DNA of 23,695 nucleotides from Candidatus Altiarchaeota archaeon (GTDB lineage: Archaea > Altiarchaeota > Altiarchaeia > IMC4 > SCGC-AAA252-I15), in assembly GCA_043813075.1 (NCBI GenBank), contig JBDRLL010000029.1, positions 1 to 23,695 of the forward strand, in the 5' to 3' direction. Each line of letters begins with the position of its first letter. The stretch's first letter is position 1. Below, piece by piece: positions 459-19,561 of the stretch. The notes beneath the pieces were generated by a model. The model searched no databases. It was not told the DNA's origin and worked only from the letters and a program-made list of their open reading frames with translations. The position numbers and the translations under genes were made by a program.

Positions 459-1769
459 TTAAATCAAATCCGGCGATATGGATTGCTTAATCTTTTCTGC
501 AACACGCATTCCACTTAAAAGAGCCTGGTCGCTCCAGAGATACGCCCATTCACCGAACCGGCCGCAATAATAGACGTCATTCTCGTCTAGATACGTGTGT
601 ATTGTGTGCAAAGCCTTCTTACGTTCTATATCGTGTATGACATAACCGTATTTTATGTCGAAATCTCCCAGATACTCCAATTCATCTGCGGCAATGCCCT
701 CTGTTCTGGTGATGCATCGTACTACCTCATCAGTAAGTGCATCACCCTCTAAGGCCAATGGCTTTGACGGTGAATACGGTATCTCAGCCTGCATGGTCTC
801 GCATCCTCCTGGCGCGTTATCCTCCGAAAACCTTGACATATAAACAATCCTCGTATAGGGGATATCCTCGTCATAATAGTAGTTCCACTGGGACGGACTG
901 CTGGCCCTATGGTCAACACGGAAGTTCAGCATCCTAAGGGACGTCCACTTCAAGCGATTCACCGCTTCGCACACCTCTTGTGGAGCATTCTTTATGCATG
1001 CTATCAGCTCCGGTAATGGGATGCTTGAGACCAGGATTCCATAATCTTCAACTATTCCCTTGTTGAATCGTATCTTCCTCTTCTGCAAGTCTACTTCGAT
1101 GGGATATGTTCCTAATCTGATGTCGGATTCTGCCTCAAGCAACCGTAGAAACGATGAAAAACCACCTTTCCGCGGGTAGATGAAGTGGGATGCGTAATGG
1201 GTGTTATCCCCTGATGTATTCAATGCACCGTCTATCATCCTCCCCAAGTCTTGTGGATTCACTCTAACCCCAATCCAGTCAGTCGTCAATTCCTGCGGTT
1301 CGACCGTCCAAAACTTCCTGGTGTACTTGTCAGTGAAGTTTTTCGAGAAATAGACGCCAAAATTTTTTTGACACCAGTCACGATAATTCATTATCTCCGC
1401 ATTGCCGTCATATTTAGCGTGGATGACGTCCAAAAGAATATCTCTGACTATCTCATTGGGCAGGCTATGAAGATTGTTCTGTGGTTCATGCTCTATCCAG
1501 TACCCCCGCCAGTAATTCAAGCAAGATACTTGCTTATCATCGTAGTCCCCAGCAACAGAATCCTTAAAAAGTCCTTTCACATACTCATTGGAGGTGAAGG
1601 ATATGTGGGGTCCATAATCAAACACGAGGCCATCGTACTGCCCTGACTTGCATAAACCACCAGCCTCACCCTCTTTTTCATATAACGTCGGGGTAAAGCC
1701 GTGTTTCCGGAGGTGATAGGCTGCGCTCAGGCCAGAAATCCCAGCACCAAGGACAGTAGCATCCATCAC
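459..1769 (-). CDS. FAD-dependent oxidoreductase, NDP-pyranose mutase-like (UGM/WbyH-like)
   Basis: N-terminal [10 protein letters not shown] dinucleotide fold, GGLCKS, FDYGPH, YPRKGG and C-terminal GRFGEWAY. The start (GTG 1769 or ATG 1766) overlaps the rfbH stop. Confidence 0.7.
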
Positions 1770-3373
1770 GGTCCCCTAACGTTGTTTTTCCTCTCCCGGA
1801 TGAAAGATGAGAACTGGCTAATCACGTATTCAAGATGTCGCTCATCCAATCCCTGGTGGAGTCCGATCCAGAATGTGTCATTCATTATGCGGTCGGTGTT
1901 GTCGAGTTTATCATGAATCCTGTAGTTGGTGTTCTGAAGGCTTGGGTGGCGGGTGATGTTCCCTGCGAAAAGCATTCTGGTGGCTATCTTGTTTTCTTCA
2001 AGATGGGATACCATCTCATCTCTCGTGAAACCGGCGTCTTGTCTGACTGTAAGTGGGAATCCGAACCAGCTCGGGTCCGACTTTTCAGTGGCTCTCGGGA
2101 GGATAAGATGGTCCGCATGGGGTTTAAGCCCGTTGTGGAGTGTCTGCCAGTTCTCCTTTCTTGCCTTAATGACCTGCGGTAGTTTCCTCAATTGGGATAC
2201 GCCCACGGCAGCCTGCATGTCGGTGACCTTCAGGTTGTAGCCTATGTGCGAGTAAATGTATTTATGGTCGTATCCGTACGGTAGGGTGCCTAACTGCCAT
2301 TTAAAGCGTTTTCCACAGGTGTTGTCCTGGCCTGGCTCGCACCAGCAGTCGCGCCCCCAGTCCCTGAAAGACGTTACTATCCCCCTAAGCTCATCGTCGT
2401 TTGTTGTTACCGCTCCTCCCTCACCCATGGTTATGTGGTGTGCTGGGTAGAAGCTGAATGTCGCAAGGTCCCCGAAGGTCCCGGTGTATCTGCCGTCGTA
2501 TCTGGACCCCAGTGCGTCGCAGTTGTCCTCCACAACCCATAATCCATGTTCCTTAGCCGTTCCAATAACCTTATCCAAGTCGAATGGGTTGCCTAAGGTG
2601 TGTGCTAGCATGATGGCCTTTGTCTTTTCTGTTAACGCATCCTCGACATCATCCGCGATTATATTATATGTGCCGACATCCACGTCCATGAATACCGGTG
2701 TCAGATTGTTCTGGATTATCGGGTTCACGCTGGTTGGGAATGCGCATGCCGTGGTTATCACCTCGTCACCAGCCTTCAATCTTCTTCCCCCGAGCTTTGG
2801 TGAGGTCAACGAGGATATGGCCAGGAGGTTTGCGGATGATCCTGAGTTCGTTATAACACAGTGTCTGACTCCCAGGAAACCGGTGAAGTCTTTTTCAAAC
2901 CTTTTCGCGAATCTTCCTGCAGTAAGCCAGAAGTCGAGTCCGGAATCCACCAGCGCCTTCATATCGCCTGCATCATAGACTCGTCTGGCATATTGGACGC
3001 GGTCCTTGCCGGGGGTGAAACCATTCTTATCTGCGTGCACCTTATCATAGTGTTTTTCGACGAGTTCGTGAATCATCCCCCTTAGTATCTCATCAATCTT
3101 CCCGACCTTCAGGCTACCAGTCCTGCAGACACTCCCTGATTTTACCCTCACGATATTGTTGGTTAATGCAAAGTATTCCCCCGTAACCTCGCCTTCAGCC
3201 AAGTCTTTTCCGCTAATCTTCACGAGGCGACCATCACCCTCCCGAATCATCGGCAGCAGACTGACATCATCACCACATGACTCGTACACTATGCCCCTGC
3301 TTATGGTGCCCGCATGGTTTCCCGGCCCCGCACGTCCGACTTCGACGATGTCGCCTAACCCTAGATCACTCAT
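1766..3373 (-). CDS. rfbH: CDP-4-keto-6-deoxyglucose 3-dehydrase (E1, RfbH/DdhC) with ~100-aa N-terminal extension
   Basis: [33 protein letters not shown] (His in place of the PLP lysine), Fe-S motif DWGRDCWC...[23 protein letters not shown]. The start overlaps the rfbG end. Confidence 0.93.
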
Positions 3374-4454
3374 AGCCCCACCCTAACCTATCCCCCTGAC
3401 TGTTATACTCCCTGATCTCCCCCACAATGAAATCCCATAGCCTATCCCCCACCATCCCCCCATAAAACATCTTATACCCCCTTACAGTCCTGTCCACTGC
3501 CTCATCTATGCCATAAACCGGCATCCATCCAAGCATTCTCCTGGCCTTGCCAACATCCAACTTCAGCAGGCCGGCTTCATGCGGGTTCTGGGAAGAGTCG
3601 ACCTCGTACTCTCCGCTACCCCAGCATTCCATCACCTTATCGACGAGTTCCCCCACCGTTATTGTATGCTCGTCAGCAGGCCCGAAATTCCATGCTCCCG
3701 AGTATTTCACAGGGTCTTCGCGCATCATGCATGCTAGCAGCAGATAGCCTGATAAGGGCTCTAGGATGTATTGCCAGGGCCTTACTGCATTAGGGTTGCG
3801 TATCATGATGGTCTCGCCCTGGTTTAGTGCTTTGATGCAGTCTGGGACTAGCCTGTCCTCATTCCAATCACCACATCCTATCACGTTACCTGATCTTGCA
3901 GATGATACGGCGACTTCCTGGAGAAATGATCTTCTATAGCTTGCTGTAACCAGTTCAGCGCATCCTTTGCTCGAGCTGTATGGGTCGTACCCTCCAAGGG
4001 GGTCAGTCTCTTTGTACTCGTGTTCAGACTCCTTGTTTTCATAGCACTTGTCGGTCGTGACTATCACGCATACCCTCACTGACCCTGTTTTCCTTACTGC
4101 CTCAAGGACATTTAATGTCCCCATCACGTTCGTCTCATATGTGAGTGCCGGTTCTTTATATGATCTTCTGACTAGTGGTTGGGCTGCCAGGTGGAAGATG
4201 AACTCTGGCTCGTGTTCATCGAAGACTGAGACTAGTCTTCCCCCTTCCCTGACGTCTCCCGTTATGTGTGTTATCCTCTCATCAAGGTTTATGGATTCGA
4301 ACAGGTTCGGTTTTGACGGTGGCTCAAGGGAGTAGCCGACTACATGCGCGCCTAGCTCGGAAAGCCATGCCGCAAGCCAGCTACCCTTGAATCCAGTGTG
4401 TCCTGTGACCAATACACTTCTCCCTTCATACGTTCTTCTTAGTTTTTCATACAT
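3366..4454 (-). CDS. rfbG: CDP-glucose 4,6-dehydratase
   Basis: [41 protein letters not shown] (YxxxK), [22 protein letters not shown]. Confidence 0.95.
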
Positions 4455-4630: not shown

Positions 4631-4744
4631 AGGGTTACTTACCTGATAACACGCAAATCCCGGATTTTATGTATTCCATGGTGTGTGTTATGGGAAAGCA
4701 ACCATGCTACCGCAAAAGACATCATGTCCTGCCGAATAACTTGC

Positions 4745-4752
4745 TTTAAATA
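4745..4752 (+). promoter_or_regulatory. TATA box for the leader-cimA transcript
   Basis: TTTAAATA matches the archaeal TTTAWATA consensus and ends 30 nt before the leader ATG at 4783. Confidence 0.6.
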
Positions 4753-4782
4753 TCCTTAAGCCCCTTAAGTAAACTGCGAAAG

Positions 4783-4860
4783 ATGGCTTACGCAAACCTG
4801 AACCAGCACGGGATGATCCTTGACATCATTAGCATAGACGCCATCACTATTGGGGGCTAG
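4783..4860 (+). CDS. Putative Ile-rich leader peptide (uORF) of cimA, 25 aa
   Basis: MAYANLNQHGMILDIISIDAITIGG*, with Ile codons at 4816, 4825, 4828, 4834, 4843 and 4849. It sits just after a TATA box and 109 nt before cimA. Alternative start at ATG 4813. Confidence 0.7.
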   Translation: MAYANLNQHGMILDIISIDAITIGG

Positions 4861-4926
4861 AGCCTCCACTACGCCACTATCCCCCGGATTTGACTGTAAT
4901 AAAACCCCGCGTATTCGATTATCGCC

Positions 4927-4933
4927 TTTTTTT
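4927..4933 (+). terminator. T7 tract in the cimA leader (candidate attenuator terminator)
   Basis: TTTTTTT between the uORF stop and the cimA RBS (GAGAGGT at about 4956-4962). Confidence 0.45.
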
Positions 4934-4969
4934 CTGCGCTGGGCACATAAATTAAGAGAGGTTTACACG

Positions 4970-6454
4970 ATGGCTAAGATACTGTTTCACGATACGACAC
5001 TGAGGGACGGCGAGCAGACGCCGGGAGTATCCCTCACTCCAGACGAGAAGCTTAGGATAGCGAAGGCCCTGGACGACCTGGGAGTGGACGTCATAGAGGC
5101 TGGTTCCGCGATAACCAGCGAGGGCGAGAGGGAGAGCATCAAGGCGATAGCCAACGAGGGATTGAAGGCTGAGATATCCAGCTTCGCGAGGATACTCCAG
5201 AAGGACATAGACTTGGCCATCGAGTGCGATGTGCACTCCATATTCCTGGTGGTCCCCACATCCGACCTTCACTTGAAGTACAAGCTGAAGACGACGAGGG
5301 AGAAGATACTCGACTCGGTGACAGAGCTTGTGGGATACTGCAAGGAGCACGGCGCCAAGGTCGACTTGTGCTGCGAGGACGGTTCCCGCACGGAAACAGA
5401 CTTCCTGAGGAAGGTTATGAAGAACGGGGTGGACGCTGGAGCCGACAGGTTCACTGTCGCCGACACGGTGGGCGTCCTCAACCCCCAGCAGACCTACGAC
5501 CTGATGGGGAAGGTGGTGAAGAACGCGAAAGTACCTGTTGGAATACACTGCCACAACGACTTCGGCATGGCGACCGCGAACACGGTTATGGCAGTCAAGG
5601 CTGGCGCACGCGTGGTCGACGTCACAGTGAACGGCCTTGGCGAGCGTGCCGGTAACGCCGCCCTGGAGGAGGTTGCTGTCGCATTGAGGCTGACTACAGG
5701 CCACAAGTTCAACGTGAAGATAGAGAAGCTGACTAAGCTTAGCGAGCTCGTGGAGAAGCTGAGTGGGGTCCCGCTGCAGCCCAATAAGGCGATAGTCGGG
5801 GAGAACGCGTTCACCCACGAGGCTGGCATCCACGTGGACGGCATACTGAAGAAGCCGTCTACCTACGAGCCGATAAAGCCCGAGATAGTGGGCGGCACGA
5901 GAAGGTTCGTGTTGGGGAAGCATGTCGGATTCAAGTCAGTGAGGAAGATGCTGGAGGACGCGGGAGTCGAGATGAGTGAAGACCAGATGCGGCAGGTGTA
6001 CGACCAGGTTAAGTTCCTCGGCGACAAGGGCAAGCATGTCACTTCAGTGGACCTGGAGTCCATAGCGAACACCGTCCTCGGCAAGGTGGAGGAGCGCGCC
6101 CTGCATCTTGAAGAGCTTGTCGCAGTGGCAGGCAACAAGTTCACTCCGACAGCATCGGTGAAACTGAGGATGAACGGCGGCTCCGTAGTATCCGCCGGAG
6201 TCGGCACAGGCCCGGTGGACGCGGCGATAAACGCGATAAAGTCCGCTACAAAGGATGTTCCGTTCGAGCTGGTGGAATACCACGTCGACTCGGTCAGCGG
6301 GGGCACGGACGCAATGGTCCGCATAGTAGTCAAGCTGAAGAGCAAGGGCCGCATAGTCACCGCCCAGGGGATAGGCGCCGACATAGTCCTCGCGTCGGTT
6401 GACGCTATGGTGAACGGGCTGAACTCGATAATGACAAAGGGGCCTAAAAAATAG
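4970..6454 (+). CDS. cimA: (R)-citramalate synthase (LeuA/CimA family), 494 aa
   Basis: DTTLRDGEQ, HCHNDFGMA, GERAGNA, HEAGIH and a C-terminal regulatory domain (GPVDA). EAGSAITSEGERE, LVVPTS and GNKFTPTASVKL match methanogen CimA rather than LeuA, which typically has EAGFP. Start reassigned to ATG 4970 based on the RBS and homology. Confidence 0.88.
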   Translation: MAKILFHDTTLRDGEQTPGVSLTPDEKLRIAKALDDLGVDVIEAGSAITSEGERESIKAIANEGLKAEISSFARILQKDIDLAIECDVHSIFLVVPTSDLHLKYKLKTTREKILDSVTELVGYCKEHGAKVDLCCEDGSRTETDFLRKVMKNGVDAGADRFTVADTVGVLNPQQTYDLMGKVVKNAKVPVGIHCHNDFGMATANTVMAVKAGARVVDVTVNGLGERAGNAALEEVAVALRLTTGHKFNVKIEKLTKLSELVEKLSGVPLQPNKAIVGENAFTHEAGIHVDGILKKPSTYEPIKPEIVGGTRRFVLGKHVGFKSVRKMLEDAGVEMSEDQMRQVYDQVKFLGDKGKHVTSVDLESIANTVLGKVEERALHLEELVAVAGNKFTPTASVKLRMNGGSVVSAGVGTGPVDAAINAIKSATKDVPFELVEYHVDSVSGGTDAMVRIVVKLKSKGRIVTAQGIGADIVLASVDAMVNGLNSIMTKGPKK

Positions 6455-6754: not shown

Positions 6755-7399
6755 TCACTCACCCTCGAATATGGGCCCGCTCAGGTCGCCTTTATTGTTG
6801 TATCCCCTGCGCTCCCACGTCCCCTTGTACTCTGGATCGTCGGACAACTCTATCTTTGTCACCCACTTCACCCACTTGTAGCCCCACTTGTCTTCAGCCA
6901 CCAGCTGGAATGGGAATCCCCTCTCTGCAGGCAGGGTTACGTTGTTCATACTGTGTGCGAGCATTATGTTGTTGCCGATTATGTAATCAAGTGGGAGTGA
7001 CGAGGTGTATCCGTCGTAGGCGTGGAATATGACTGTGTTGGCTTCTGGCTTAATGCCCGCATCCTCCAGGAGGTCTTTCACCAGCACGCCCTCCCAGAAC
7101 AGCTTAACACTCCACCCTTCCACGCAGTTGAGTGCCACCACCTTAGAGTACTCCTGCTTCTCAAGGACCTGCTCGTACGTGTATGTCATGGGCTTTTCAA
7201 CAAGCCCTGTGACTTCCAGCACGTACCCCTCCTTTTCCACGTACTGGGGGCCTTTTATGGAGTTCTCGCGGAACTGGTTTATCGAGGACAGCTTCTCCCC
7301 CCTGTATTCGCTGACTTCAACTCCGTCCAGTTCTATTGTCTTGCCTTCGATGCATCCTAGCGTGAGTGCCAGCGCCAGCAGGACGCATGCCTTTTTCAC
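6755..7399 (-). CDS. Molybdopterin-dependent oxidoreductase (sulfite oxidase/MsrP-like domain), predicted lipoprotein
   Basis: LNCVEGWS (Mo-ligand Cys), LPAERGFPFQLV, GYKWVKWVTKIEL, GTWERRGY. Signal peptide MKKACVLLALALTLGC. GTG 7399 overlaps the wzt TGA and follows GGAGGT. Confidence 0.85.
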   Translation of the reverse strand: MKKACVLLALALTLGCIEGKTIELDGVEVSEYRGEKLSSINQFRENSIKGPQYVEKEGYVLEVTGLVEKPMTYTYEQVLEKQEYSKVVALNCVEGWSVKLFWEGVLVKDLLEDAGIKPEANTVIFHAYDGYTSSLPLDYIIGNNIMLAHSMNNVTLPAERGFPFQLVAEDKWGYKWVKWVTKIELSDDPEYKGTWERRGYNNKGDLSGPIFEGE

Positions 7400-8637
7400 T
7401 CGTACCTCCATTCTGACGGCAGGTAAAGGTATCCCGCATTGTGTTGGCTGTATTCCCTGCTGGTCTCTATTACCTTGAATTGCGCGGCGTTCCTCATGCC
7501 GGTTATGGTCATCGCCCCCTTGCTGTCCAGTATGCTTATGTCAATGACGTAAGTCCCCCTGAGGAGTGGTATGTTCTTTATCACGCACTTTATCCTATGG
7601 TCTCCAGGCTCAAGGTCCGGTATGTCATCCAGCTCCCCCAGGGTCGTGCTGTGGGCTATGGTCATCATGTTGTGGTCAGACACCTTCACCATAACGTTCG
7701 GCGACGAGACCTTCTTCCACACCTTTATGTCCAACTCTATGTTGAGGTCATTGTTCTTGTGTATGGCCTTCGACTCCGTGCCGTCGTCCTCGCCCAGTTT
7801 TATGTTCATTATGCTTATGTCCGCAGTGCCTTCCTCGTACTTCGGCTGGGTCCCGTACTTCTCATGCATCCTCTTGAGCATGTCGTCGCTCAGGTTGTCC
7901 CAGTAAAGTATCGACCCCTCCTTGATGGGCCCTGTGAACTTTGCCTGTCCCCTGTCCATGTAGAAAAGCCTGTCGCACACCCTCTCTATCTCCCCTATCC
8001 AGTGGGAGACGAAGAGTACCGTTATCTTCCCCCTGTTCTTGTCCAGCCAGTCCAGGCATTTCTGCCTGAAGCCTATGTCCCCGACCGCGAGCGCCTCATC
8101 CACAAGTAGTATCTCCGCGTTAGTGTGTATCGCCACGCTGAATCCGAGCCTCGCCTGCATTCCGGAGGAATACATCCTGAACGGCTTGTCAAACCATTCT
8201 CCGATATCGCAGAATTCCTCGATAACCGGGATTCTCTCGTCTATCTCTTCTCTTGACAGTCCCATTATCGCAGCCAGCACTCTCGCGTTCTCCCTCCCCG
8301 TCAGCTCCCAGTGCACTCCAGCAGTCAACTCTATCATCGGGAAGACTCGGCCGTTAACGTACACGTCACCCTTTGTCGGCGGGGTGACTCCGCATAGGAC
8401 CTTGAGTAGCGTGGATTTTCCAGCACCGTTCTTGCCTATTATCCCCAGCATCTCACCCCTCCTCACCTCCAGGCTAATGTCCTTTAGGGCCCACGGCCTC
8501 GTGTCCCTGGGTATCCTGAAGAGCCCTCTGACATCCGCCTTAGTGAAGCAGTTCAGATAGTGGCCTATGATGTAGGCGTAAGGCATGCCATACCTCTTCC
8601 AGAGGCCGTCTATCCTCACAACCACGTCATCATCCAT
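7396..8637 (-). CDS. wzt: Polysaccharide ABC exporter ATPase with C-terminal Wzt_C-like domain
   Basis: Walker A GKNGAGKST, YSSGMQARL signature, LLVDEALAVGD, VSH; about 160-aa beta-rich C-terminal extension. Confidence 0.88.
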   Translation of the reverse strand: MDDDVVVRIDGLWKRYGMPYAYIIGHYLNCFTKADVRGLFRIPRDTRPWALKDISLEVRRGEMLGIIGKNGAGKSTLLKVLCGVTPPTKGDVYVNGRVFPMIELTAGVHWELTGRENARVLAAIMGLSREEIDERIPVIEEFCDIGEWFDKPFRMYSSGMQARLGFSVAIHTNAEILLVDEALAVGDIGFRQKCLDWLDKNRGKITVLFVSHWIGEIERVCDRLFYMDRGQAKFTGPIKEGSILYWDNLSDDMLKRMHEKYGTQPKYEEGTADISIMNIKLGEDDGTESKAIHKNNDLNIELDIKVWKKVSSPNVMVKVSDHNMMTIAHSTTLGELDDIPDLEPGDHRIKCVIKNIPLLRGTYVIDISILDSKGAMTITGMRNAAQFKVIETSREYSQHNAGYLYLPSEWRYE

Positions 8638-8638
8638 C

Positions 8639-9430
8639 CTATATCACGTCCGCAAAGTATTGGGAGAGGTATCTGAACATGGGCCAGCATACTGCCAGCA
8701 CAGCTATGGTAACTACAATGGATATCGCTAGTAGCGTCAGGTCTGGCGCCATGTTCTTCACCAGAACGTTCCTGAAGCCCTCTATCACGCCGACCATGGG
8801 GTTAAGGCTGTAGAGGAGTCTCCTCCCCTCAGGCACCTGGCTTATCGGGTATGCCACAGGCGACGCGAGCATCCAGAATTGCATGAGGAATGGTATGCCG
8901 AACAGCACATCCTGCTTGTAGGTTCCCACCGCAGCGAATCCGAGCCCGAAGGCGAAGGTTATTACGAGGAGCACTGCGATGAGCAGCGGAAGCCATAGTA
9001 GTGCGGCACCCACCGGCGTCTTGAACCAGATCATCATCGCAACGAGTATTATCGCTGATATGAAGAATTCTATGACCGATATTATTATGTTCGCGAGGAG
9101 GTAGACTTCCCTGTCCAAGGGTATCTTCTTTATAAGGCTCGCGTAGCCGTATATCGAGTTACCGCACCTGCTCACCGCAGTGGAGAAGAACGTCCATGGG
9201 ACAAGGGCGCAGTAGGAGAATATTATGTACGGCGTCCCCTCGCTCGAGATCGTGAATATGCCCCTTATGAACGTGAACAAGACCATGTAGAAGAGCGGTT
9301 GTATGAGTGCCCAGAGCGGTCCTAGCAGCGACCTCCTGTACCTGCCCTTGAACTCCCTTACAACGAGGGCCCATATCATGCTTATGAAGTATGTCTTCTT
9401 GTTGTACGCCTGCCTATGGTAGCTCGTCAT
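8639..9430 (-). CDS. wzm: Polysaccharide ABC-2 exporter permease
   Basis: REFKGRYRRSLLGPLWALIQP, SPVAYP, LNPMVGVIEGFR; about six hydrophobic segments; adjacent to wzt. Confidence 0.88.
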   Translation of the reverse strand: MTSYHRQAYNKKTYFISMIWALVVREFKGRYRRSLLGPLWALIQPLFYMVLFTFIRGIFTISSEGTPYIIFSYCALVPWTFFSTAVSRCGNSIYGYASLIKKIPLDREVYLLANIIISVIEFFISAIILVAMMIWFKTPVGAALLWLPLLIAVLLVITFAFGLGFAAVGTYKQDVLFGIPFLMQFWMLASPVAYPISQVPEGRRLLYSLNPMVGVIEGFRNVLVKNMAPDLTLLAISIVVTIAVLAVCWPMFRYLSQYFADVI

Positions 9431-9500: not shown

Positions 9501-10754
9501 ATGGCCCAGAACATAGCTGAAAAGATTCTCGCATCCCATGCTGGCGTCGATGCCGTCTCTCCAGGGGAGATTGTGGACGCTGAGGTCGACTACGTCATGG
9601 TCAACGACGTCACCGGCCTGCCAGCATTCAAGGTGTTCGAGCAGTTCGGTGTGACCCCAATCAGGGAGAAGAGCATCCTGATACCAGACCATTATGTGCC
9701 AAACAAGGATGTGGCGTCCGCGGAGCAGGCGAAGGCTATGCGGGAGTTCGCTGGGAAACACGATATCCCGAACTACTTTGAGATAGGCCGGAGCGGGGTA
9801 TGCCACCAGCTGATGATAGAGCAGGGCTTCGCCGCCCCAGGCAGGCTGATAGTCGGGGCCGACTCCCACACCTGCAGTTACGGTGCGTTGGGCTGTTTTT
9901 CCACCGGCATCGGCAGCACCGAGGCCGCTGCCGCGATGGCGTTGGGAAGGCTATGGTTCAGGGTCCCGGAGTCGATGAAGCTCACCGTCGACGGCAAGCT
10001 CGGGAAATATGTCATGGGGAAGGACATAGTCCTGCATACTATTGGAGACATCGGTGTTGACGGCGCGCTCTACAAGTCGATGGAATGGTATGGCAGCGCG
10101 ATAGAGTCACTGTCGCTCGCCGACCGCATCAGCATCAGCAACATGGCCATCGAGGCCGGCGGCAAGGCGGGCATCATTCCCGCCGACAAGAAGGTGGACG
10201 ACTACCTGAAGGGCCGGGTGCGCGGCACATACAGGAAGGTTTCTGCAGACAAGGATGCTGATTATTCTGACGAGATTAACTACGACGCTAAGAGCATCGT
10301 CCCCACTGTGGCAGAGCCGTTCCTGCCTGAGAACACTAAGCCCGCGAGTGAAGTGGACGTTGAGATAGATCAGGCGTATCTGGGCTCCTGCACGAACGGC
10401 CGCATAGAGGACTTCCGTGTTGCCGCCAGCATACTGAAGGGCAGGAAGGTTAAGGACGGCGTCAGGCTCATAGTAGTCCCAGCCTCCCACAGCATCATGG
10501 ATCAGATGATAGAGGAGGGGCTATACAAGATATTCAGCGACGCCGACGCCTACATATCCGGCCCAACGTGCGGCGCCTGCCTTGGCGGATACATGGGCGT
10601 GCTCGCGAACGAGGAGGTGTGTGTCAGCACCACCAACCGCAACTTCATCGGCAGGATGGGCCATAAGGGAAGTAAAGTCTATCTAGCCAACCCGGCTGTT
10701 GTCGCAGCTTCTGCGGTAACCGGGAGGATCACGGACCCGAGTGAGTTGGAATGA
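9501..10754 (+). CDS. leuC: 3-isopropylmalate/citramalate dehydratase large subunit
   Basis: PDH, GVCHQ, GADSHTC, GSCTNGR, CGACLG (Fe-S cysteines), STTNRNFIGRMG. Confidence 0.93.
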   Translation: MAQNIAEKILASHAGVDAVSPGEIVDAEVDYVMVNDVTGLPAFKVFEQFGVTPIREKSILIPDHYVPNKDVASAEQAKAMREFAGKHDIPNYFEIGRSGVCHQLMIEQGFAAPGRLIVGADSHTCSYGALGCFSTGIGSTEAAAAMALGRLWFRVPESMKLTVDGKLGKYVMGKDIVLHTIGDIGVDGALYKSMEWYGSAIESLSLADRISISNMAIEAGGKAGIIPADKKVDDYLKGRVRGTYRKVSADKDADYSDEINYDAKSIVPTVAEPFLPENTKPASEVDVEIDQAYLGSCTNGRIEDFRVAASILKGRKVKDGVRLIVVPASHSIMDQMIEEGLYKIFSDADAYISGPTCGACLGGYMGVLANEEVCVSTTNRNFIGRMGHKGSKVYLANPAVVAASAVTGRITDPSELE

Positions 10755-11299
10755 GCGAGGCGTTGCTTGTAATCGACATGCAGAAGGATGTCCTGGAGTG
10801 GATGGTTCCCGCAGGTAATGACGTATTGTCCAACGTGAAGCTGGTTCTTGAAGCGTTCCGGGATTCTGGCAAGCCGGTGGTCCACATTCTTCGCGTCCAT
10901 GCCGCCGACGGCAGCGACGTTGAAGTGTTCAGGAGGAGGATGTTCTCAGAGAAACCGTACCTAGTAAGGGGTACTTCCGGCGCTGAGGTCGTTGGCGAGC
11001 TCGCTCCATTGGAGACAGAGCATGTTGTGGAGAAGCAGAGGTTCAGCGCCTTCTTCCAGACTGGCTTGAAGCACCTGCTGGACAGCATAGGAGTGGACAC
11101 GCTCATAGTGGTGGGCGTCCAGACCCCCAACTGCGTCCGATGCACTGTGACCGACGCGGTGAGCCACGACTACAAGGTCATACTCGTCAGGGATGCGGTG
11201 GCTGCTGCCACGCCGGAGATTCACGAAGCCAACCTCCTGGACTTGGGGAACATGGGCGTGGAGTTAAGGACTGTGGAGGATATAGTTAATAGCGTTTGA
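10751..11299 (+). CDS. Cysteine hydrolase (isochorismatase family)
   Basis: Asp-Lys-Cys triad: VIDMQKD, VEKQRFSAF, GVQTPNCV. ATGA overlap with leuC. Confidence 0.9.
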   Translation: MSEALLVIDMQKDVLEWMVPAGNDVLSNVKLVLEAFRDSGKPVVHILRVHAADGSDVEVFRRRMFSEKPYLVRGTSGAEVVGELAPLETEHVVEKQRFSAFFQTGLKHLLDSIGVDTLIVVGVQTPNCVRCTVTDAVSHDYKVILVRDAVAAATPEIHEANLLDLGNMGVELRTVEDIVNSV

Positions 11300-11327: not shown

Positions 11328-11735
11328 ATGGCTAAAACAAGGGAAACCGGTGGGGAGCTGGCTGACTTGCGCAGGCAGATGTATGAGCTACAGCGCGTTC
11401 CAACGCAGATTACCGGCACGGTCCAGGAGCACATTATGAACGATAGGTGGGATCAGGCTGCGGGAGGCTTAATAAGGGAGCCGGAAGCGTTTGGGGATAA
11501 GGATAAAGCATTGAATGATGCTGTGGTGTGTCTCGCGTTATTGCGTGTTGCTACGCCCGCTGCAGAGCAGAAAGCCTGGGACTTGATGGCGAAGGGCACT
11601 CTCCAGCATGCGGACGACCAGAAACTGCGTTTCAGGGCTTACGAGGACAAGGTGGACGAGTTCGCGAGGACGCCCGCCAGGATTCGGGAGGAGGCTGCGA
11701 GATTAAAACGGGAGTATCCAGTGAAGAAGCAATGA
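11328..11735 (+). CDS. Hypothetical helical protein (135 aa)
   Basis: GGTGA RBS upstream; stop overlaps the leuD start (ATGA); no motif recognised. Confidence 0.7.
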   Translation: MAKTRETGGELADLRRQMYELQRVPTQITGTVQEHIMNDRWDQAAGGLIREPEAFGDKDKALNDAVVCLALLRVATPAAEQKAWDLMAKGTLQHADDQKLRFRAYEDKVDEFARTPARIREEAARLKREYPVKKQ

Positions 11736-12216
11736 ATCATATAAAAGGCAGGGCATGGAGGTTCGGGAGCAACGTCGACACAGACCAGATCATTCCCGCA
11801 GAATACCTGGTGATGGCAGACCCAGTGGAATTGGGGAAGCACGCGTTCGAGAAGGTGCGGCCGGATTTCGTTAAAGGCGTTAAGAAGGGGGACATCATCG
11901 TCGCTGACGAAAACTTCGGGTGCGGGTCTTCCAGGGAGCATGCGCCACGCGCCCTCATGGGGTGTGGGATATCCTGCGTGATAGCCAAGAGCTTCGCCCG
12001 CATATACTTCAGGAACAGCATCAACCTCGGGTTCCCTGCCATCGAGTGCGGCGTGGACGCCAGTGACGGCGACGAGATTGAAGTCGACTACTCGAAAGGC
12101 AAGGTTAGGAACGTTACGACAGGGAAAGAATATGGATTCAAGCCGCTGCCTGAATTCCTGTTGAACCTTATGGAGTCCGGGGGGCTCGTAGAATACGTTA
12201 AAAAACAATTGAAGAA

Positions 12217-12220
<4 letters not shown>
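11732..12220 (+). CDS. leuD: 3-isopropylmalate/citramalate dehydratase small subunit (162 aa)
   Basis: NVDTDQIIPAEYLVM, NFGCGSSREHA, SFARIYFRNSINLG. The YLVM loop is IPMI-type rather than homoaconitase YLRT. Start reassigned to ATG 11732. Confidence 0.92.
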
Positions 12221-13478
<1,258 letters not shown>

Positions 13479-15056: not shown

Positions 15057-16190
15057 ATGATGAAAAAAGTGCGGGTGGGCGTCATCGGCCCCGGAACAAT
15101 AGGGCATAAGGTCATATGGGCTATTGAACGTCAGGAAGATATGGTCGTCTCCGGTGTGGCTAAGACTTCCCCCGACTGGGTTGCTAAATGGGTTGCGGAG
15201 AAGGGGTACAAGCTATACCCGTCCTCTAAGAAGGGTGCTGAGGGAGTTCCAGACGCCATGAGGGAGTTCAAGGAGAAGATTGGCGGGGAGCATATAGGCG
15301 GGCCTGTGGAGGAGTTGTTCGGTGTTTCAGACGTCATAGTGGACTGCACTGGGAGCAAGTTCGGCGCTAGGAACAAGGAAGAGCTTTACGTGCCGTACAA
15401 CAAGGCTAATGATAACCGTCTTAAAGTCCTGTTTCAGGGGGGAGAGTCGGCTGACATAGGCGCGTCATTCAACACTAGAGCCAGCTACGACAAGTGCGTG
15501 GAATCTGTTGAAGCAGGTAACCCGTACCTCCGGGTGGTCTCATGCAATACGACCGGGCTGGCTAGGCTTGTCGGCAGTGTCATCGAGCACGGGTGGGGTG
15601 TGGACTATCTTACTTCAACATTGATACGGCGTTCCACAGACCCCGGCCAGTCCAGTAAGATGAGGATTGACGGGACTGAAGTGAGCCTTAAGATACCATC
15701 GCATCATGCGCCAGACCTTCAGGAAGTGCTGGATGTGGAAGCGTATTCCAGGGCGTATAAGGTCCCGGTCAGCTCCATGCATGTGCACGACCTGAGGATG
15801 ACTTTCAAGAAGAAGGCTCCCAGCAAGGAGGAGTTCGCCTCCATGTTCGAGGATGACGTCCGTGTCGCGCTGCTGGAGACGTTCGACAGCACAATAGAGC
15901 TCCGGGAGCGTGTGCGTCGCATAAACAAGCTCGAACCACACCTGTTCCCTGGCGGCGACTTGTTCATGTCCGCGGTCTCGACCGGTTCATACTACGTGTT
16001 CAGGGGCAGGGAAGTCTGGCTTACGCAGGGCATCCCCCAGGACTCGATCGTGGTGCCGGAGACTATAGACTGCATACGGGCTTCAATGCATTCAACGCTA
16101 AAGGCCGGGCGTGATGATGCGATGTCCCGGACGGACGAGTCCCTTAAGCTGGGTTTGATGAAGGAAGTCCTTGAAGAAAGCTACAGATGA
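15057..16190 (+). CDS. gap: Archaeal type II glyceraldehyde-3-phosphate dehydrogenase
   Basis: GPGTIG, FQGGE, VVSCNTTGL (catalytic Cys), IRRSTDP, PSHHAPD, QDSIVVPE.IDCIRA; GGAGG RBS. Confidence 0.88.
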   Translation: MMKKVRVGVIGPGTIGHKVIWAIERQEDMVVSGVAKTSPDWVAKWVAEKGYKLYPSSKKGAEGVPDAMREFKEKIGGEHIGGPVEELFGVSDVIVDCTGSKFGARNKEELYVPYNKANDNRLKVLFQGGESADIGASFNTRASYDKCVESVEAGNPYLRVVSCNTTGLARLVGSVIEHGWGVDYLTSTLIRRSTDPGQSSKMRIDGTEVSLKIPSHHAPDLQEVLDVEAYSRAYKVPVSSMHVHDLRMTFKKKAPSKEEFASMFEDDVRVALLETFDSTIELRERVRRINKLEPHLFPGGDLFMSAVSTGSYYVFRGREVWLTQGIPQDSIVVPETIDCIRASMHSTLKAGRDDAMSRTDESLKLGLMKEVLEESYR

Positions 16191-18499: not shown

Positions 18500-19561
18500 G
18501 TGTCAAAAAAACTTTTTATTCCAGGTCCAGTGGACGTTAGTCCCGATGTTGCTGCAAAGATGAGCGAGCCCATGATGGGTCACAGAAGCAAAGAGTATGC
18601 TGAACTGCATGGGAGCCTTACTTCAGGCTTGAAGAAGCTTTTGTTCACCCAAAACCCCGTGTTCATAAGCGCCACGTCCAGCACAGGCTGGATGGAGGCT
18701 GCGATAACAAACTGTGTGGGCAGGAACTCCCTGCACATAGTGAACGGCGCGTTCAGCAGCCGCTGGTACAAGATATCAATGGCTTGCGGCAGGCAGGCCA
18801 CAAAAGTCGACGTTGAATGGGGCAGCGCCGCCAAGCCAGCTGACGTTGAGGAGCTGGTGAATAGCGGGGGTTTTGACGCGCTCTTCATAACCCACAACGA
18901 GACTTCCACCGGTGCCATGACGCCGTTGGATGGGTTCGGGAAGCTTTGCCACGACAACCAAATGCTGTTGTGTGTTGACGCAGTCAGCAGTGCGGCTGGA
19001 GTCAAGATCGAGACAGACAAGCTTGGCATAGACGTCCTAGTGACCGGCACCCAGAAGTGTTTCGCAGTCGCCCCCGGGCTGGCGTTGACTACAGTATCGC
19101 AGGCCGCGTTAGACCGGTCTAAGGAGATGCCTGGCAAGGGATACTACTTCGACTATCACGAGTACCTGAAGAAGGACGCGAAGAACAACACGCCCTCAAC
19201 ACCACCGATACCTCAGATTGCTGCATTAGACTATAAGGTCCGGAAGATACTCACTGAAGAGGGGCTCGAAAACCGGTTCAAGAGGCATAAGGAGCTCGCA
19301 GACTACACACGGAAATGGGGTATGGAGAAGTGGGAGCTTTTCACAGAGGACTGGTGCGCCTCCAACACCGTCAGCTGCATGAAGAACACTCGTGAATACG
19401 ACCTGAACGACCTGAAGTCCAAGCTTTCCGCGGCCGGCTACGAGTTCAGCAACGGATACGGGGACTTGAAGGGCAAGGCATTCAGGGTCGCCCACATGGG
19501 GGACCGGCAGATGCCAGACCTCAAAGAGTACCTTGAGGCCATCGACTCGATAGTTGGGTGA
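18500..19561 (+). CDS. Class V PLP aminotransferase (serine-pyruvate/alanine-glyoxylate family; possibly archaeal phosphoserine aminotransferase)
   Basis: FIPGP, GHRS, THNETSTG, VDAVSS, GTQKC (PLP Lys), TPSTPP, FRVAHMG; GGGGTGA RBS before GTG. Confidence 0.9.
   Translation: MSKKLFIPGPVDVSPDVAAKMSEPMMGHRSKEYAELHGSLTSGLKKLLFTQNPVFISATSSTGWMEAAITNCVGRNSLHIVNGAFSSRWYKISMACGRQATKVDVEWGSAAKPADVEELVNSGGFDALFITHNETSTGAMTPLDGFGKLCHDNQMLLCVDAVSSAAGVKIETDKLGIDVLVTGTQKCFAVAPGLALTTVSQAALDRSKEMPGKGYYFDYHEYLKKDAKNNTPSTPPIPQIAALDYKVRKILTEEGLENRFKRHKELADYTRKWGMEKWELFTEDWCASNTVSCMKNTREYDLNDLKSKLSAAGYEFSNGYGDLKGKAFRVAHMGDRQMPDLKEYLEAIDSIVG

Follow-up and report, generated by a model that had tools for sequence, protein, structure and literature searches.

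A candidate isoleucine-codon leader peptide ending in a stop-codon hairpin upstream of a CimA-type gene in Altiarchaeota, with a leucine counterpart

The enterobacterial leu, ilvGMEDA and ilvBN leaders are ribosome-mediated transcription attenuators. In the Escherichia coli tna leader, a ribosome held by TnaC, which senses free tryptophan through its nascent peptide and stalls at the stop codon, prevents Rho-dependent termination in an unstructured, G-poor spacer, with no antiterminator. Published leaders of branched-chain genes also include those of ilvBNC and leuA in Corynebacterium and a leucine-rich attenuator peptide in Staphylococcus aureus (PMC11857589, PMC10272879, PMC5794164). For archaea, according to a 2021 paper, no mechanism of transcription attenuation or antitermination is known (PMC8448881), the upstream open reading frames (uORFs) seen in Haloferax by ribosome profiling are given no such role where that report describes them (PMC7261190), and the literature that we searched held no description of an archaeal amino acid leader peptide or attenuator. 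Here we analyze a stretch of 23,695 nucleotides (nt) from Candidatus Altiarchaeota (contig JBDRLL010000029.1; the window), in which a uORF rich in isoleucine (Ile) codons ends inside a small hairpin upstream of cimA, a gene for a predicted citramalate synthase-like enzyme. We give a probability of roughly 0.72 to the reading that this leader would be a cis-acting, ribosome-read Ile sensor controlling cimA; that it is an amino acid-sensing leader peptide, taken by itself, seems highly probable.

The window is contig C29 of a 1.8-Mb metagenome-assembled genome that is 89% complete; the names under which its close relatives were deposited are Candidatus Altiarchaeota or Altiarchaeales. The leader lies within a 515-nt intergenic region between two divergent genes, cimA and a CDP-glucose 4,6-dehydratase gene (Table 1). 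The initial annotation had singled out a TATA box, a 25-codon uORF and a 109-nt spacer with a T7 run, all of which are in the sequence (the spacer, from the uORF stop to the cimA ATG, at 4861-4969), as are the six Ile residues that it had counted among codons 12-23, spelled with all three Ile codons (ATC three times, ATT twice, ATA once). To these we add two features that it did not mention, a 7-bp hairpin whose loop contains the uORF stop codon and a Shine-Dalgarno (SD)-like GAGAGGT ahead of cimA. The first half of the uORF peptide is not hydrophobic, and the last of the Ile codons, ATT at 4849-4851, touches the hairpin. By a rough count ATA is the commonest Ile codon of the genome, and the leader uses mainly ATC and ATT.

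Could such a cluster of Ile codons be a coincidence? Scanning the 1.8-Mb genome for short ORFs with at least five identical residues in their last 14 codons yielded 1838, among them 21 of the Ile type. Only 143 of the scan ORFs are intergenic and upstream of a long ORF, and exactly one of these is of the Ile type, the window uORF, which argues that it is more than chance. Neither this amino acid-run scan nor an architecture scan (47 hits) found a third leader in the window genome, leaving only the Ile leader and the leucine (Leu) leader described below; the candidates on contigs C35, C33, C22, C4 and C17 precede unrelated genes. Small hydrophobic ORFs also lie next to unrelated genes elsewhere in the genome (C4, C17). 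Read in the 5' direction, the cimA frame itself stays open as far as a TTG at 4850 and, lying in the +1 frame, overlaps the last codons of the uORF. A fusion of uORF and cimA by frameshifting was rejected as unlikely, because this upstream opening is not conserved: in relatives the frame mostly stops just 5' of the ATG.

Relatives carry the same arrangement. A protein search of 40 relatives recovered clear cimA orthologues at 63-84% identity; the family comprises 21 genomes in the searched collection, and 19 of these offer an orthologue together with sequence upstream of it, a contig end cutting the locus in G005 and no orthologue being present in G007. An equivalent ATG-started Ile uORF stands upstream of cimA in 14 of the 19, with 12-31 codons and its end 35-118 nt before the cimA ATG; examples from relatives are MFYPTMMAKETGLYGRMILRLISIAAIIIGL, MAQFTRFLLLSTIIAIIIGA and MEPHYKQTAQSTLLTISIGSIIIGG, and at locus L019 the peptide is only MASNCLIIIIEG. 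The N-termini of the 14 leaders cannot be aligned, whereas their ends are constant, with Ile codons, GG.. and the stop. Among the 168 residues in their last 12 codons, 60 are Ile (the rough genome figure is 6.5%), compared with 18 Leu, 6 Val and 3 Phe, and the residues with A+T-rich codons number K 0, N 1, F 3 and Y 1. That Ile alone is enriched argues both against a generic hydrophobic peptide and against an artefact of A+T composition. The two codons immediately 5' of the hairpin read Ile-Ile in 13 of the 14 leaders, the window copy having Thr-Ile. A degenerate 21-nt core pattern, run against metagenomes, matched four contigs, two of which hold new leaders before cimA orthologues (MSGFRFNLLASIGIILIIGA and MQYDTGYPGLKGIIALIIGA), each with a T6-7 tract; the other two matches are unrelated palindromes. 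The Ile clusters that the initial annotation expected in relatives' short ORFs, despite nucleotide divergence, are thus present in these 14 family genomes and two metagenome contigs.

Why end a reading frame inside a hairpin? In the window, UGGGGGC (4851-4857) pairs with GCCUCCA (4862-4868) around the loop UAGA (4858-4861), which contains the TAG stop. A hairpin around the stop codon folds in all 14 Ile leaders, at -7.9 to -11.3 kcal/mol by RNAfold with standard parameters at 37 C, which may not be the growth temperature of the hosts. At the RNA level the conserved core consists of two Ile codons (AT[TCA] ATT, once ATC) followed by the hairpin with the stop in its loop; the stop itself varies among UAG, UGA and UAA, and the six 5' arms (GGAGC, GGGGG, GGGGC, GGGAC, GGGCU and GAAGG) are each matched by their own 3' arm. 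Leaders form 4.93 of 5 pairs with their own arms and 3.84 of 5 after arms are exchanged between leaders, as counted by script on RNAfold structures, a procedure biased by its construction towards pairing. The final two peptide residues (GA, GG, GT, EG or GL) track the stem sequence, and since they change with the stem, the RNA helix appears to be what is conserved. MAFFT left the loop ungapped in the alignment of the Ile hairpins. A covariance model of the Ile hairpin (R1, from seven same-register sequences) proved too specific, with ten matches of which one is spurious, and the R1 alignment of 14 short loci was contaminated by reverse-strand palindrome matches. Rfam gave no match in the window at the gathering score, none for 4650-5050 at E up to 10, and none in 20 related loci with Ile or Leu leaders. 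The 211-nt leader as a whole is not unusually stable (z = +0.74).

We file the gene behind the leader as CimA-type, that is, citramalate synthase-like, its substrate specificity being a prediction. The 494-amino acid (aa) protein matches the NCBIfam profiles NF002085 (641.7 bits, residues 2-489) and TIGR02090 (526.4 bits), and it shares with its relatives the Pfam domains PF00682 and PF08502, corresponding to the catalytic barrel and the C-terminal LeuA-dimer regulatory domain. The window genome has three paralogues, namely the window copy, a copy on C31 (47% identity) and a short copy on C10 (37% identity), and Methanocaldococcus sp. 28A carries the same trio, of 491, 519 and 403 aa. Maximum-likelihood analysis of 11 proteins places the 491-aa Methanocaldococcus paralogue in one group with the window protein and its orthologues (support 100/98); the C31 paralogue falls with the 519-aa LeuA-type and 403-aa homocitrate-synthase-type paralogues. 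The M. jannaschii proteins MJ1392 and MJ1195 we take to be 491 and 518 aa long. MJ1392 is described as the characterised CimA of that species and MJ1195 as its LeuA (PMC8305020). The names given by JGI, this description and the assumed lengths together lead us to regard the 491-aa paralogue as the counterpart of MJ1392. JGI names close relatives of the window protein D- or (R)-citramalate synthase; the NCBI pipeline calls them 2-isopropylmalate synthase. The earlier assignment to the CimA type, as opposed to LeuA or homocitrate synthase, thus stands on the grouping in the tree and on the JGI names. No family match above cut-off to threonine ammonia-lyase (IlvA, threonine deaminase) was found in the 89%-complete genome, which makes the citramalate route the likely source of 2-oxobutyrate.

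The LeuA-type paralogue has a leader of its own. Upstream of this gene (C31:32334-33869) lies a uORF with a run of Leu codons, MDGSYIYPTVVINEDYFSGNPVLRLLLLLRLRA (G000:C31:33935-34036, minus strand, equivalent to L002:3108-3209). The initial annotation had treated the match between residue and enzyme, Ile for CimA, as the key signal, and a Leu run before a LeuA-type gene reinforces it. We collected 20 upstream regions from relatives, two of them too short, which with the window genome made 19 usable regions; in 15 of the 19 the leader ends in [SR][GW]NP[IL]L.LLLLLRLR[AE] and the stop. A diverged sixteenth, recognized by eye at L116 (G007:C71), reads MESCGFCSAGCFQPVFRSLFLLLM and ends in SLFLLLM before its stop. 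At L116 the hairpin follows the stop codon and does not enclose it, and G007 is the genome without a CimA-type orthologue by the search used. The Leu leader is doubtful in G021, and none was found in G026 or G030.

The helix of the Leu leader has two parts, the stop codon beginning the 5' strand of the inner one, and its covariation is clear: 93.3% of cells are paired, eight of 11 pairs have changed on both sides (compensatory examples are UAGAC/GUCUA, UAAAC/GUUUA, UAAGC/GCUUA and UGAAU/AUUCA), and the covariation score of 0.497 compares with 0.283 in shuffles, none of 500 reaching it, and with at most 0.123 when the partners are slid. A covariance model of this leader, run against 61 genomes of the phylum, matched 20 at E up to 0.01, once per genome; 18 matches are strong, and two are weak and probably spurious. 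With the window genome excluded from the counts, matches fall in 14 of 20 genomes of the window genome's own family, in the single genome of f4, in both genomes of f3, in the single genome of f2 (a weak match in G021, E 0.002, on a contig other than that of the LeuA paralogue) and in one of four of f8 (weak, G050, E 0.005), and there are none in f6 (0/1), f7 (0/1), f5 (0/22) or f9 (0/8). Three strong matches outside the training set (G002, G003 and G027) lie directly upstream of the LeuA paralogue. The Leu leader is thus spread more widely than the Ile leader, over three or four families of the order. Unlike the Ile leader, its peptide is also conserved 5' of the Leu run, with synonymous variation in the G-N-P codons, suggesting that the nascent chain may matter in this leader.

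Both leaders would stand at the very start of their transcripts. All 14 Ile leaders and all 15 Leu leaders have a TATA-like 8-mer (7 or more of 8 positions matching) whose start lies 30-39 nt 5' of the uORF ATG, a spacing that predicts transcripts beginning at the ATG or a few bases before it, and hence a leaderless or nearly leaderless uORF, if the transcription start that we infer is right. A second promoter in the spacer was mostly rejected: a TATA-like box of the same stringency 20-48 nt before cimA is present at three of 14 leader-bearing loci versus 15 of 18 loci lacking a leader, and the general want of a proximal TATA in the former argues against transcription starting 3' of the uORF. 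SD-like motifs, read by eye, are clear before cimA in about eight of the 14 leader-bearing loci and before nearly all LeuA paralogues, which suggests a leadered cimA message. Both genes behind leaders, cimA and the LeuA paralogue, are monocistronic, and in the window the ORFs next downstream of cimA lie on the opposite strand. The simplest reading would be a single transcript comprising promoter, uORF, spacer, SD and gene.

How might such a transcript sense Ile? The controlled gene would encode the CimA-type synthase, the first committed step of isoleucine synthesis, and a promoter about 35 nt upstream would give a leaderless or nearly leaderless transcript that opens with the uORF. With charged tRNA-Ile plentiful, the ribosome would reach the stop codon and depart, and the hairpin would close; with charged tRNA-Ile scarce, the ribosome would be parked on the Ile codons, where its footprint would hold the 5' arm of the hairpin unpaired. 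The front end has precisely the geometry of an attenuator sensor: with the last cognate codon in its A site, a ribosome would cover the loop along with the 5' arm, and one on the stop codon would cover both arms. The difference between closed hairpin and parked ribosome would then set the amount of full-length, translatable cimA message. Translation of the uORF, stalling of the ribosome, the sign of the regulation and the output step are all parts that we infer.

Given such a sensor, we put about even odds on the output of the Ile leader being premature termination at the U-tract. One study describes U-tracts as the archaeal terminator signal bound by aCPSF1, the two together setting termination efficacy, and reports that a U-tract alone suffices for archaeal terminators (PMC8716108); the window genome encodes an aCPSF1/FttA orthologue (906.9 bits). 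A run of five to eight T is found in 12 of the 14 Ile-leader spacers, against a background in the window genome of 246 among 1257 upstream regions (19.6%) with a run of at least five T. Ten of the 12 runs end 31-38 nt before the cimA ATG; measured from the uORF stop, the distance to the run ranges between 30 and 79 nt. The U5-8 tract would act as an archaeal U-tract terminator assisted by aCPSF1/FttA, and a parked ribosome would suppress termination. The KOW domain of Spt5 is reported to bind FttA and has been proposed to bridge to the ribosome (PMC13681488). We conjecture that a ribosome on the nascent RNA might engage this domain or occupy the RNA, so that FttA would not be recruited, and that a released ribosome would leave Spt5 free; no antiterminator hairpin would be needed, as the parked ribosome would act on factor recruitment and not on RNA folding. 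A G-free run of 14-27 nt, usually ending in GG, extends from the hairpin end in 11 of the 14 Ile leaders; G makes up 11% of the first 25 nt after the hairpin overall, and the window copy has a G after 4 nt. This tract (window 4869-4890, with equivalents in L004-L019) recalls the kind of site on which a factor that binds single-stranded RNA is loaded. What looked by eye like a helix around the U-tract was dropped as chance (pairs spanning the U-run number 76 observed, against 84.4 in flank shuffles). Our most ambitious proposal, that the paired Ile (cimA) and Leu (leuA) leaders would be the first ribosome-mediated attenuation system of Archaea, working in a way not used by bacteria, in which a latch hairpin opened by a parked ribosome gates aCPSF1/FttA-Spt5 termination or transcript decay with no RNA switch, is tentative and, as a whole, rather doubtful.

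A number of observations weigh against the sensor or against termination as its output, beginning with the distribution of the Ile leader. The genomes compared are all related metagenome assemblies, so that the counts are not independent. The Ile uORF is absent from five family genomes, four of one genus (G008, G015, G017 and G019) and G009, and from all 11 loci examined from other families of the order; together these absences point to a lineage-restricted device. None was found in two further named Altiarchaeota or Euryarchaeota records either, and in a scan aimed at this motif only, not at every kind of leader, none of the segments flagged among 72 distant orthologues (51-57% identity) from Methanoperedens, Bathyarchaeia, Methanothrix, Methanococcales and Hadarchaeales showed it; this distant scan covered 80 loci from named records, six of them repeating loci already included. 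As far as sampled, then, the Ile leader is confined to one family and the Leu leader to a few families of one order. In the genus that lacks the Ile leader, two loci (L018 of G017 and L021 of G015) share a different uORF about 40-170 nt before cimA, MNLHFFKPKSFFPHEFADFLI... and MSHIFSNPKSFFPQLFPSFLI..., which is rich in Phe and not in Ile and is missing from the other two genomes of that genus.

The spacer supplies further points on the same side. Three leader-bearing loci (L007, L015 and L017) do have a TATA-like 8-mer suitably placed before cimA; two Ile leaders (L013 and L016) have no U-tract, and L016 has just 35 nt between the uORF stop and the cimA ATG. A hairpin precedes only four or five of the 12 U-tracts, a stem abutting the tract in L007, L008, L011 and L012, and a consensus scan for bacterial-type terminators gave no site in the window. 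We also folded the leaders in three states, as free RNA and constrained by a ribosome placed either on the last Ile codon or on the stop codon. The bacterial-style alternative hairpins implied by the word attenuation in the initial annotation did not appear: neither the 14 whole leaders nor 12 RNAs cut at the U-tract gave a consistent alternation between terminator and antiterminator, and a switch of that kind is not supported. In RNAalifold on 10 full Leu leaders the stop-codon hairpin is the sole conserved helix, and a run of at least five T occurs in only one of 15 Leu-leader spacers. Should a single output mechanism serve both leaders, its core may not include the U-tract.

Much of this would be expected if the same sensor acted after transcription, on initiation of cimA translation or on message stability and not on termination. 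A ribosome stalled near the leaderless 5' end might block 5'-3' decay, for example, or the closed hairpin might be a nuclease target, and the U-tract would be accessory or would serve as a translational or structural spacer. This alternative, the chief rival to termination, is somewhat on the unlikely side. The Leu twin has the same front end, yet 14 of its 15 spacers lack the T run and its sole conserved structure is the hairpin; the two Ile leaders with no U-tract, the failure to model any antiterminator and a U-tract whose distance is fixed to the start codon and not to the uORF all fit it too; and the closest bacterial analogue, a leaderless short ORF with an amino acid run, is described as acting on translation (bioRxiv 10.1101/834739). 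Unmasking of the ribosome-binding site (RBS), by contrast, is not supported by thermodynamic modelling, in which the stalled ribosome does not raise RBS accessibility: the region from -16 to +4 of cimA is unpaired to a mean of 0.52 in free RNA and 0.49 in stalled RNA, and stalling makes the modelled RBS more accessible in one of the 14 leaders and less accessible in four. The freed 3' arm, which is CCUCC-like, would if anything pair with the SD, giving the wrong sign (L001, L004). The enrichment of U-tracts, 12 of 14 over a background of 19.6%, would also need another explanation.

It is improbable, in our judgement, that the hairpin is instead a protein operator or a small-molecule-binding RNA element beside a frame that is untranslated or irrelevant. 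The hairpin is indeed the best conserved element, covarying in the Ile and the Leu versions, and no alternative RNA structures connect it to the downstream gene. Set against this, all 29 leaders have an in-frame ATG with a TATA-like box 30-39 nt 5' of it, the frame is kept open through 5' parts that cannot be aligned, the stop keeps its place in loop or stem while switching among UAG, UGA and UAA, and the runs of cognate codons differ between the paralogues as expected; the hairpin, with its 4-8 bp and 3-6-nt loop, is moreover too small for a known ligand-binding fold and has no Rfam match even at E up to 10. Least credible is a small hydrophobic membrane-type peptide merely encoded beside cimA, its Ile forming a transmembrane-like segment, for although several versions resemble a single hydrophobic helix (for example MAGKNGFWMVFLGIVLVASAIIIGT and MKCSTVFSGFVSLALVSIASLIIIGA) and small hydrophobic ORFs adjoin unrelated genes on C4 and C17, only Ile is enriched and not Leu, Val or Phe, the length runs from 12 to 31 residues with a non-hydrophobic first half in the window copy and just MASNCLIIIIEG in L019, the C-terminal residues follow the RNA stem and not a peptide motif, the Leu-run leader of the paralogue ends in charged RLR[AE], and the position relative to promoter and cimA is fixed.

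Elsewhere in the window, a sugar-modification cluster, divergent from the leader-cimA unit, contains the CDP-glucose 4,6-dehydratase gene along with genes for an FAD oxidoreductase and for an RfbH-like aminotransferase extended by about 95 aa at its N-terminus, and ABC polysaccharide-export genes lie on the other side of cimA. Further along come LeuC-like, LeuD-like and LeuB genes, interrupted by a gene for an isochorismatase-family hydrolase and an unassigned ORF; no Leu- or Ile-rich uORF was found before leuC or leuB in the window. Five plus-strand ORFs beyond them have no NCBIfam match at E up to 1e-10 and are adjoined by genes for a type II GAPDH-like protein and an aminotransferase.

Table 1. 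Coordinates of the predicted leader, its target gene and neighbouring features in the window.
Feature	Position	Strand	Remark
CDP-glucose 4,6-dehydratase gene	3366-4454	minus	divergent from cimA
TATA-like promoter box TTTAAATA	4745-4752	plus	38 nt 5' of uORF ATG
Predicted leader uORF, 25 codons and TAG, peptide MAYANLNQHGMILDIISIDAITIGG	4783-4860	plus	ATG 4783, TAG 4858-4860
Ile-codon cluster, codons 12, 15, 16, 18, 21 and 23	4816-4851	plus	within uORF
Stop-codon hairpin	4851-4868	plus	RNAfold -11.3 kcal/mol
C-rich, G-poor spacer, hairpin to T tract	4869-4926	plus	composition
T7 tract, candidate archaeal termination (attenuation) signal	4927-4933	plus	ends 36 nt before cimA ATG
SD-like GAGAGGT	4956-4962	plus	7 nt before cimA ATG
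CimA-type synthase gene, 494 aa, monocistronic	4970-6454	plus	profiles, Pfam domains, tree
Sugar-modification cluster	459-4454	minus	divergent from leader-cimA unit
ABC polysaccharide-export genes	7396-9430		
LeuC-like gene	9501-10754		
Isochorismatase-family hydrolase gene	10751-11299		interrupts LeuC-/LeuD-/LeuB-like genes
ORF	11328-11735		interrupts LeuC-/LeuD-/LeuB-like genes
LeuD-like gene	within 11528-12220		
LeuB gene	12426-13478		
ORF, 503 aa	13501-15012	plus	
Type II GAPDH-like gene	15057-16190		
ORF, 210 aa	16187-16819	plus	
ORF, 536 aa	16816-18426	plus	
Aminotransferase gene	18500-19561		
ORF, 430 aa	19702-20994	plus	
ORF, 316 aa	21033-21983	plus	

What would an Ile sensor of this kind mean? 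If the reading is right, the sensing of charged tRNA through ribosome speed would not be confined to bacteria, and about 190 nt of DNA would offer a natural test case for crosstalk among ribosome, RNA polymerase, Spt4/5 and aCPSF1/FttA in archaea, as well as for the regulatory use of leaderless uORFs and the role of a hairpin around a stop codon. Should the latch act through FttA, the leader would moreover provide a direct functional read-out of archaeal transcription-translation coupling. The combination of TATA box, leaderless short ORF with a codon run and stop-codon hairpin lends itself to a simple screen that is portable across archaeal genomes, and for archaeal synthetic biology the leader pair could supply portable control parts that respond to Ile and Leu.

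Set beside the bacterial branched-chain attenuators, the Ile leader shares a short leader ORF rich in codons for the end product before the first biosynthetic gene, on what is here predicted to be the same transcript, a stop codon at or in the first hairpin, a U-run before the structural gene and, if our reading holds, the logic of sensing charged tRNA through ribosome speed. It differs in its archaeal host, TATA-box promoter and leaderless-type uORF, in a U-tract that mostly comes without a GC-rich stem, as expected for archaeal terminators, and in that each paralogue has its own single-amino acid leader; the regulated gene, cimA, is moreover a pathway entry that those bacteria do not use. 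The mutually exclusive 2:3 and 3:4 hairpins that define classical attenuators were not found here, and we therefore do not file the leader as a member of that class. The mycobacterial polycysteine 'Cys ribulon', as described in a preprint (Canestrari et al., 10.1101/834739), resembles it in other respects: a leaderless short ORF as first cistron, a codon run matched to the metabolism of the genes behind it, several loci answering to one amino acid signal, and no need of a classical terminator. In mycobacteria the stalled ribosome is reported to block a duplex that hides the RBS, whereas here modelled RBS accessibility is unchanged, and the conserved structure of the archaeal leaders is a hairpin around the uORF stop, followed in the Ile version by a U-tract. 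Compared with tna, the signal would come from hungry Ile codons that lie 1-12 codons before the stop, in place of a nascent peptide that senses free tryptophan, and the factor would be the nuclease aCPSF1/FttA, which is unrelated to Rho. For a reading in which a parked ribosome keeps aCPSF1/FttA from terminating transcription, the tna leader nonetheless offers the best functional analogy, and the G-free tract after the archaeal hairpin fits it.

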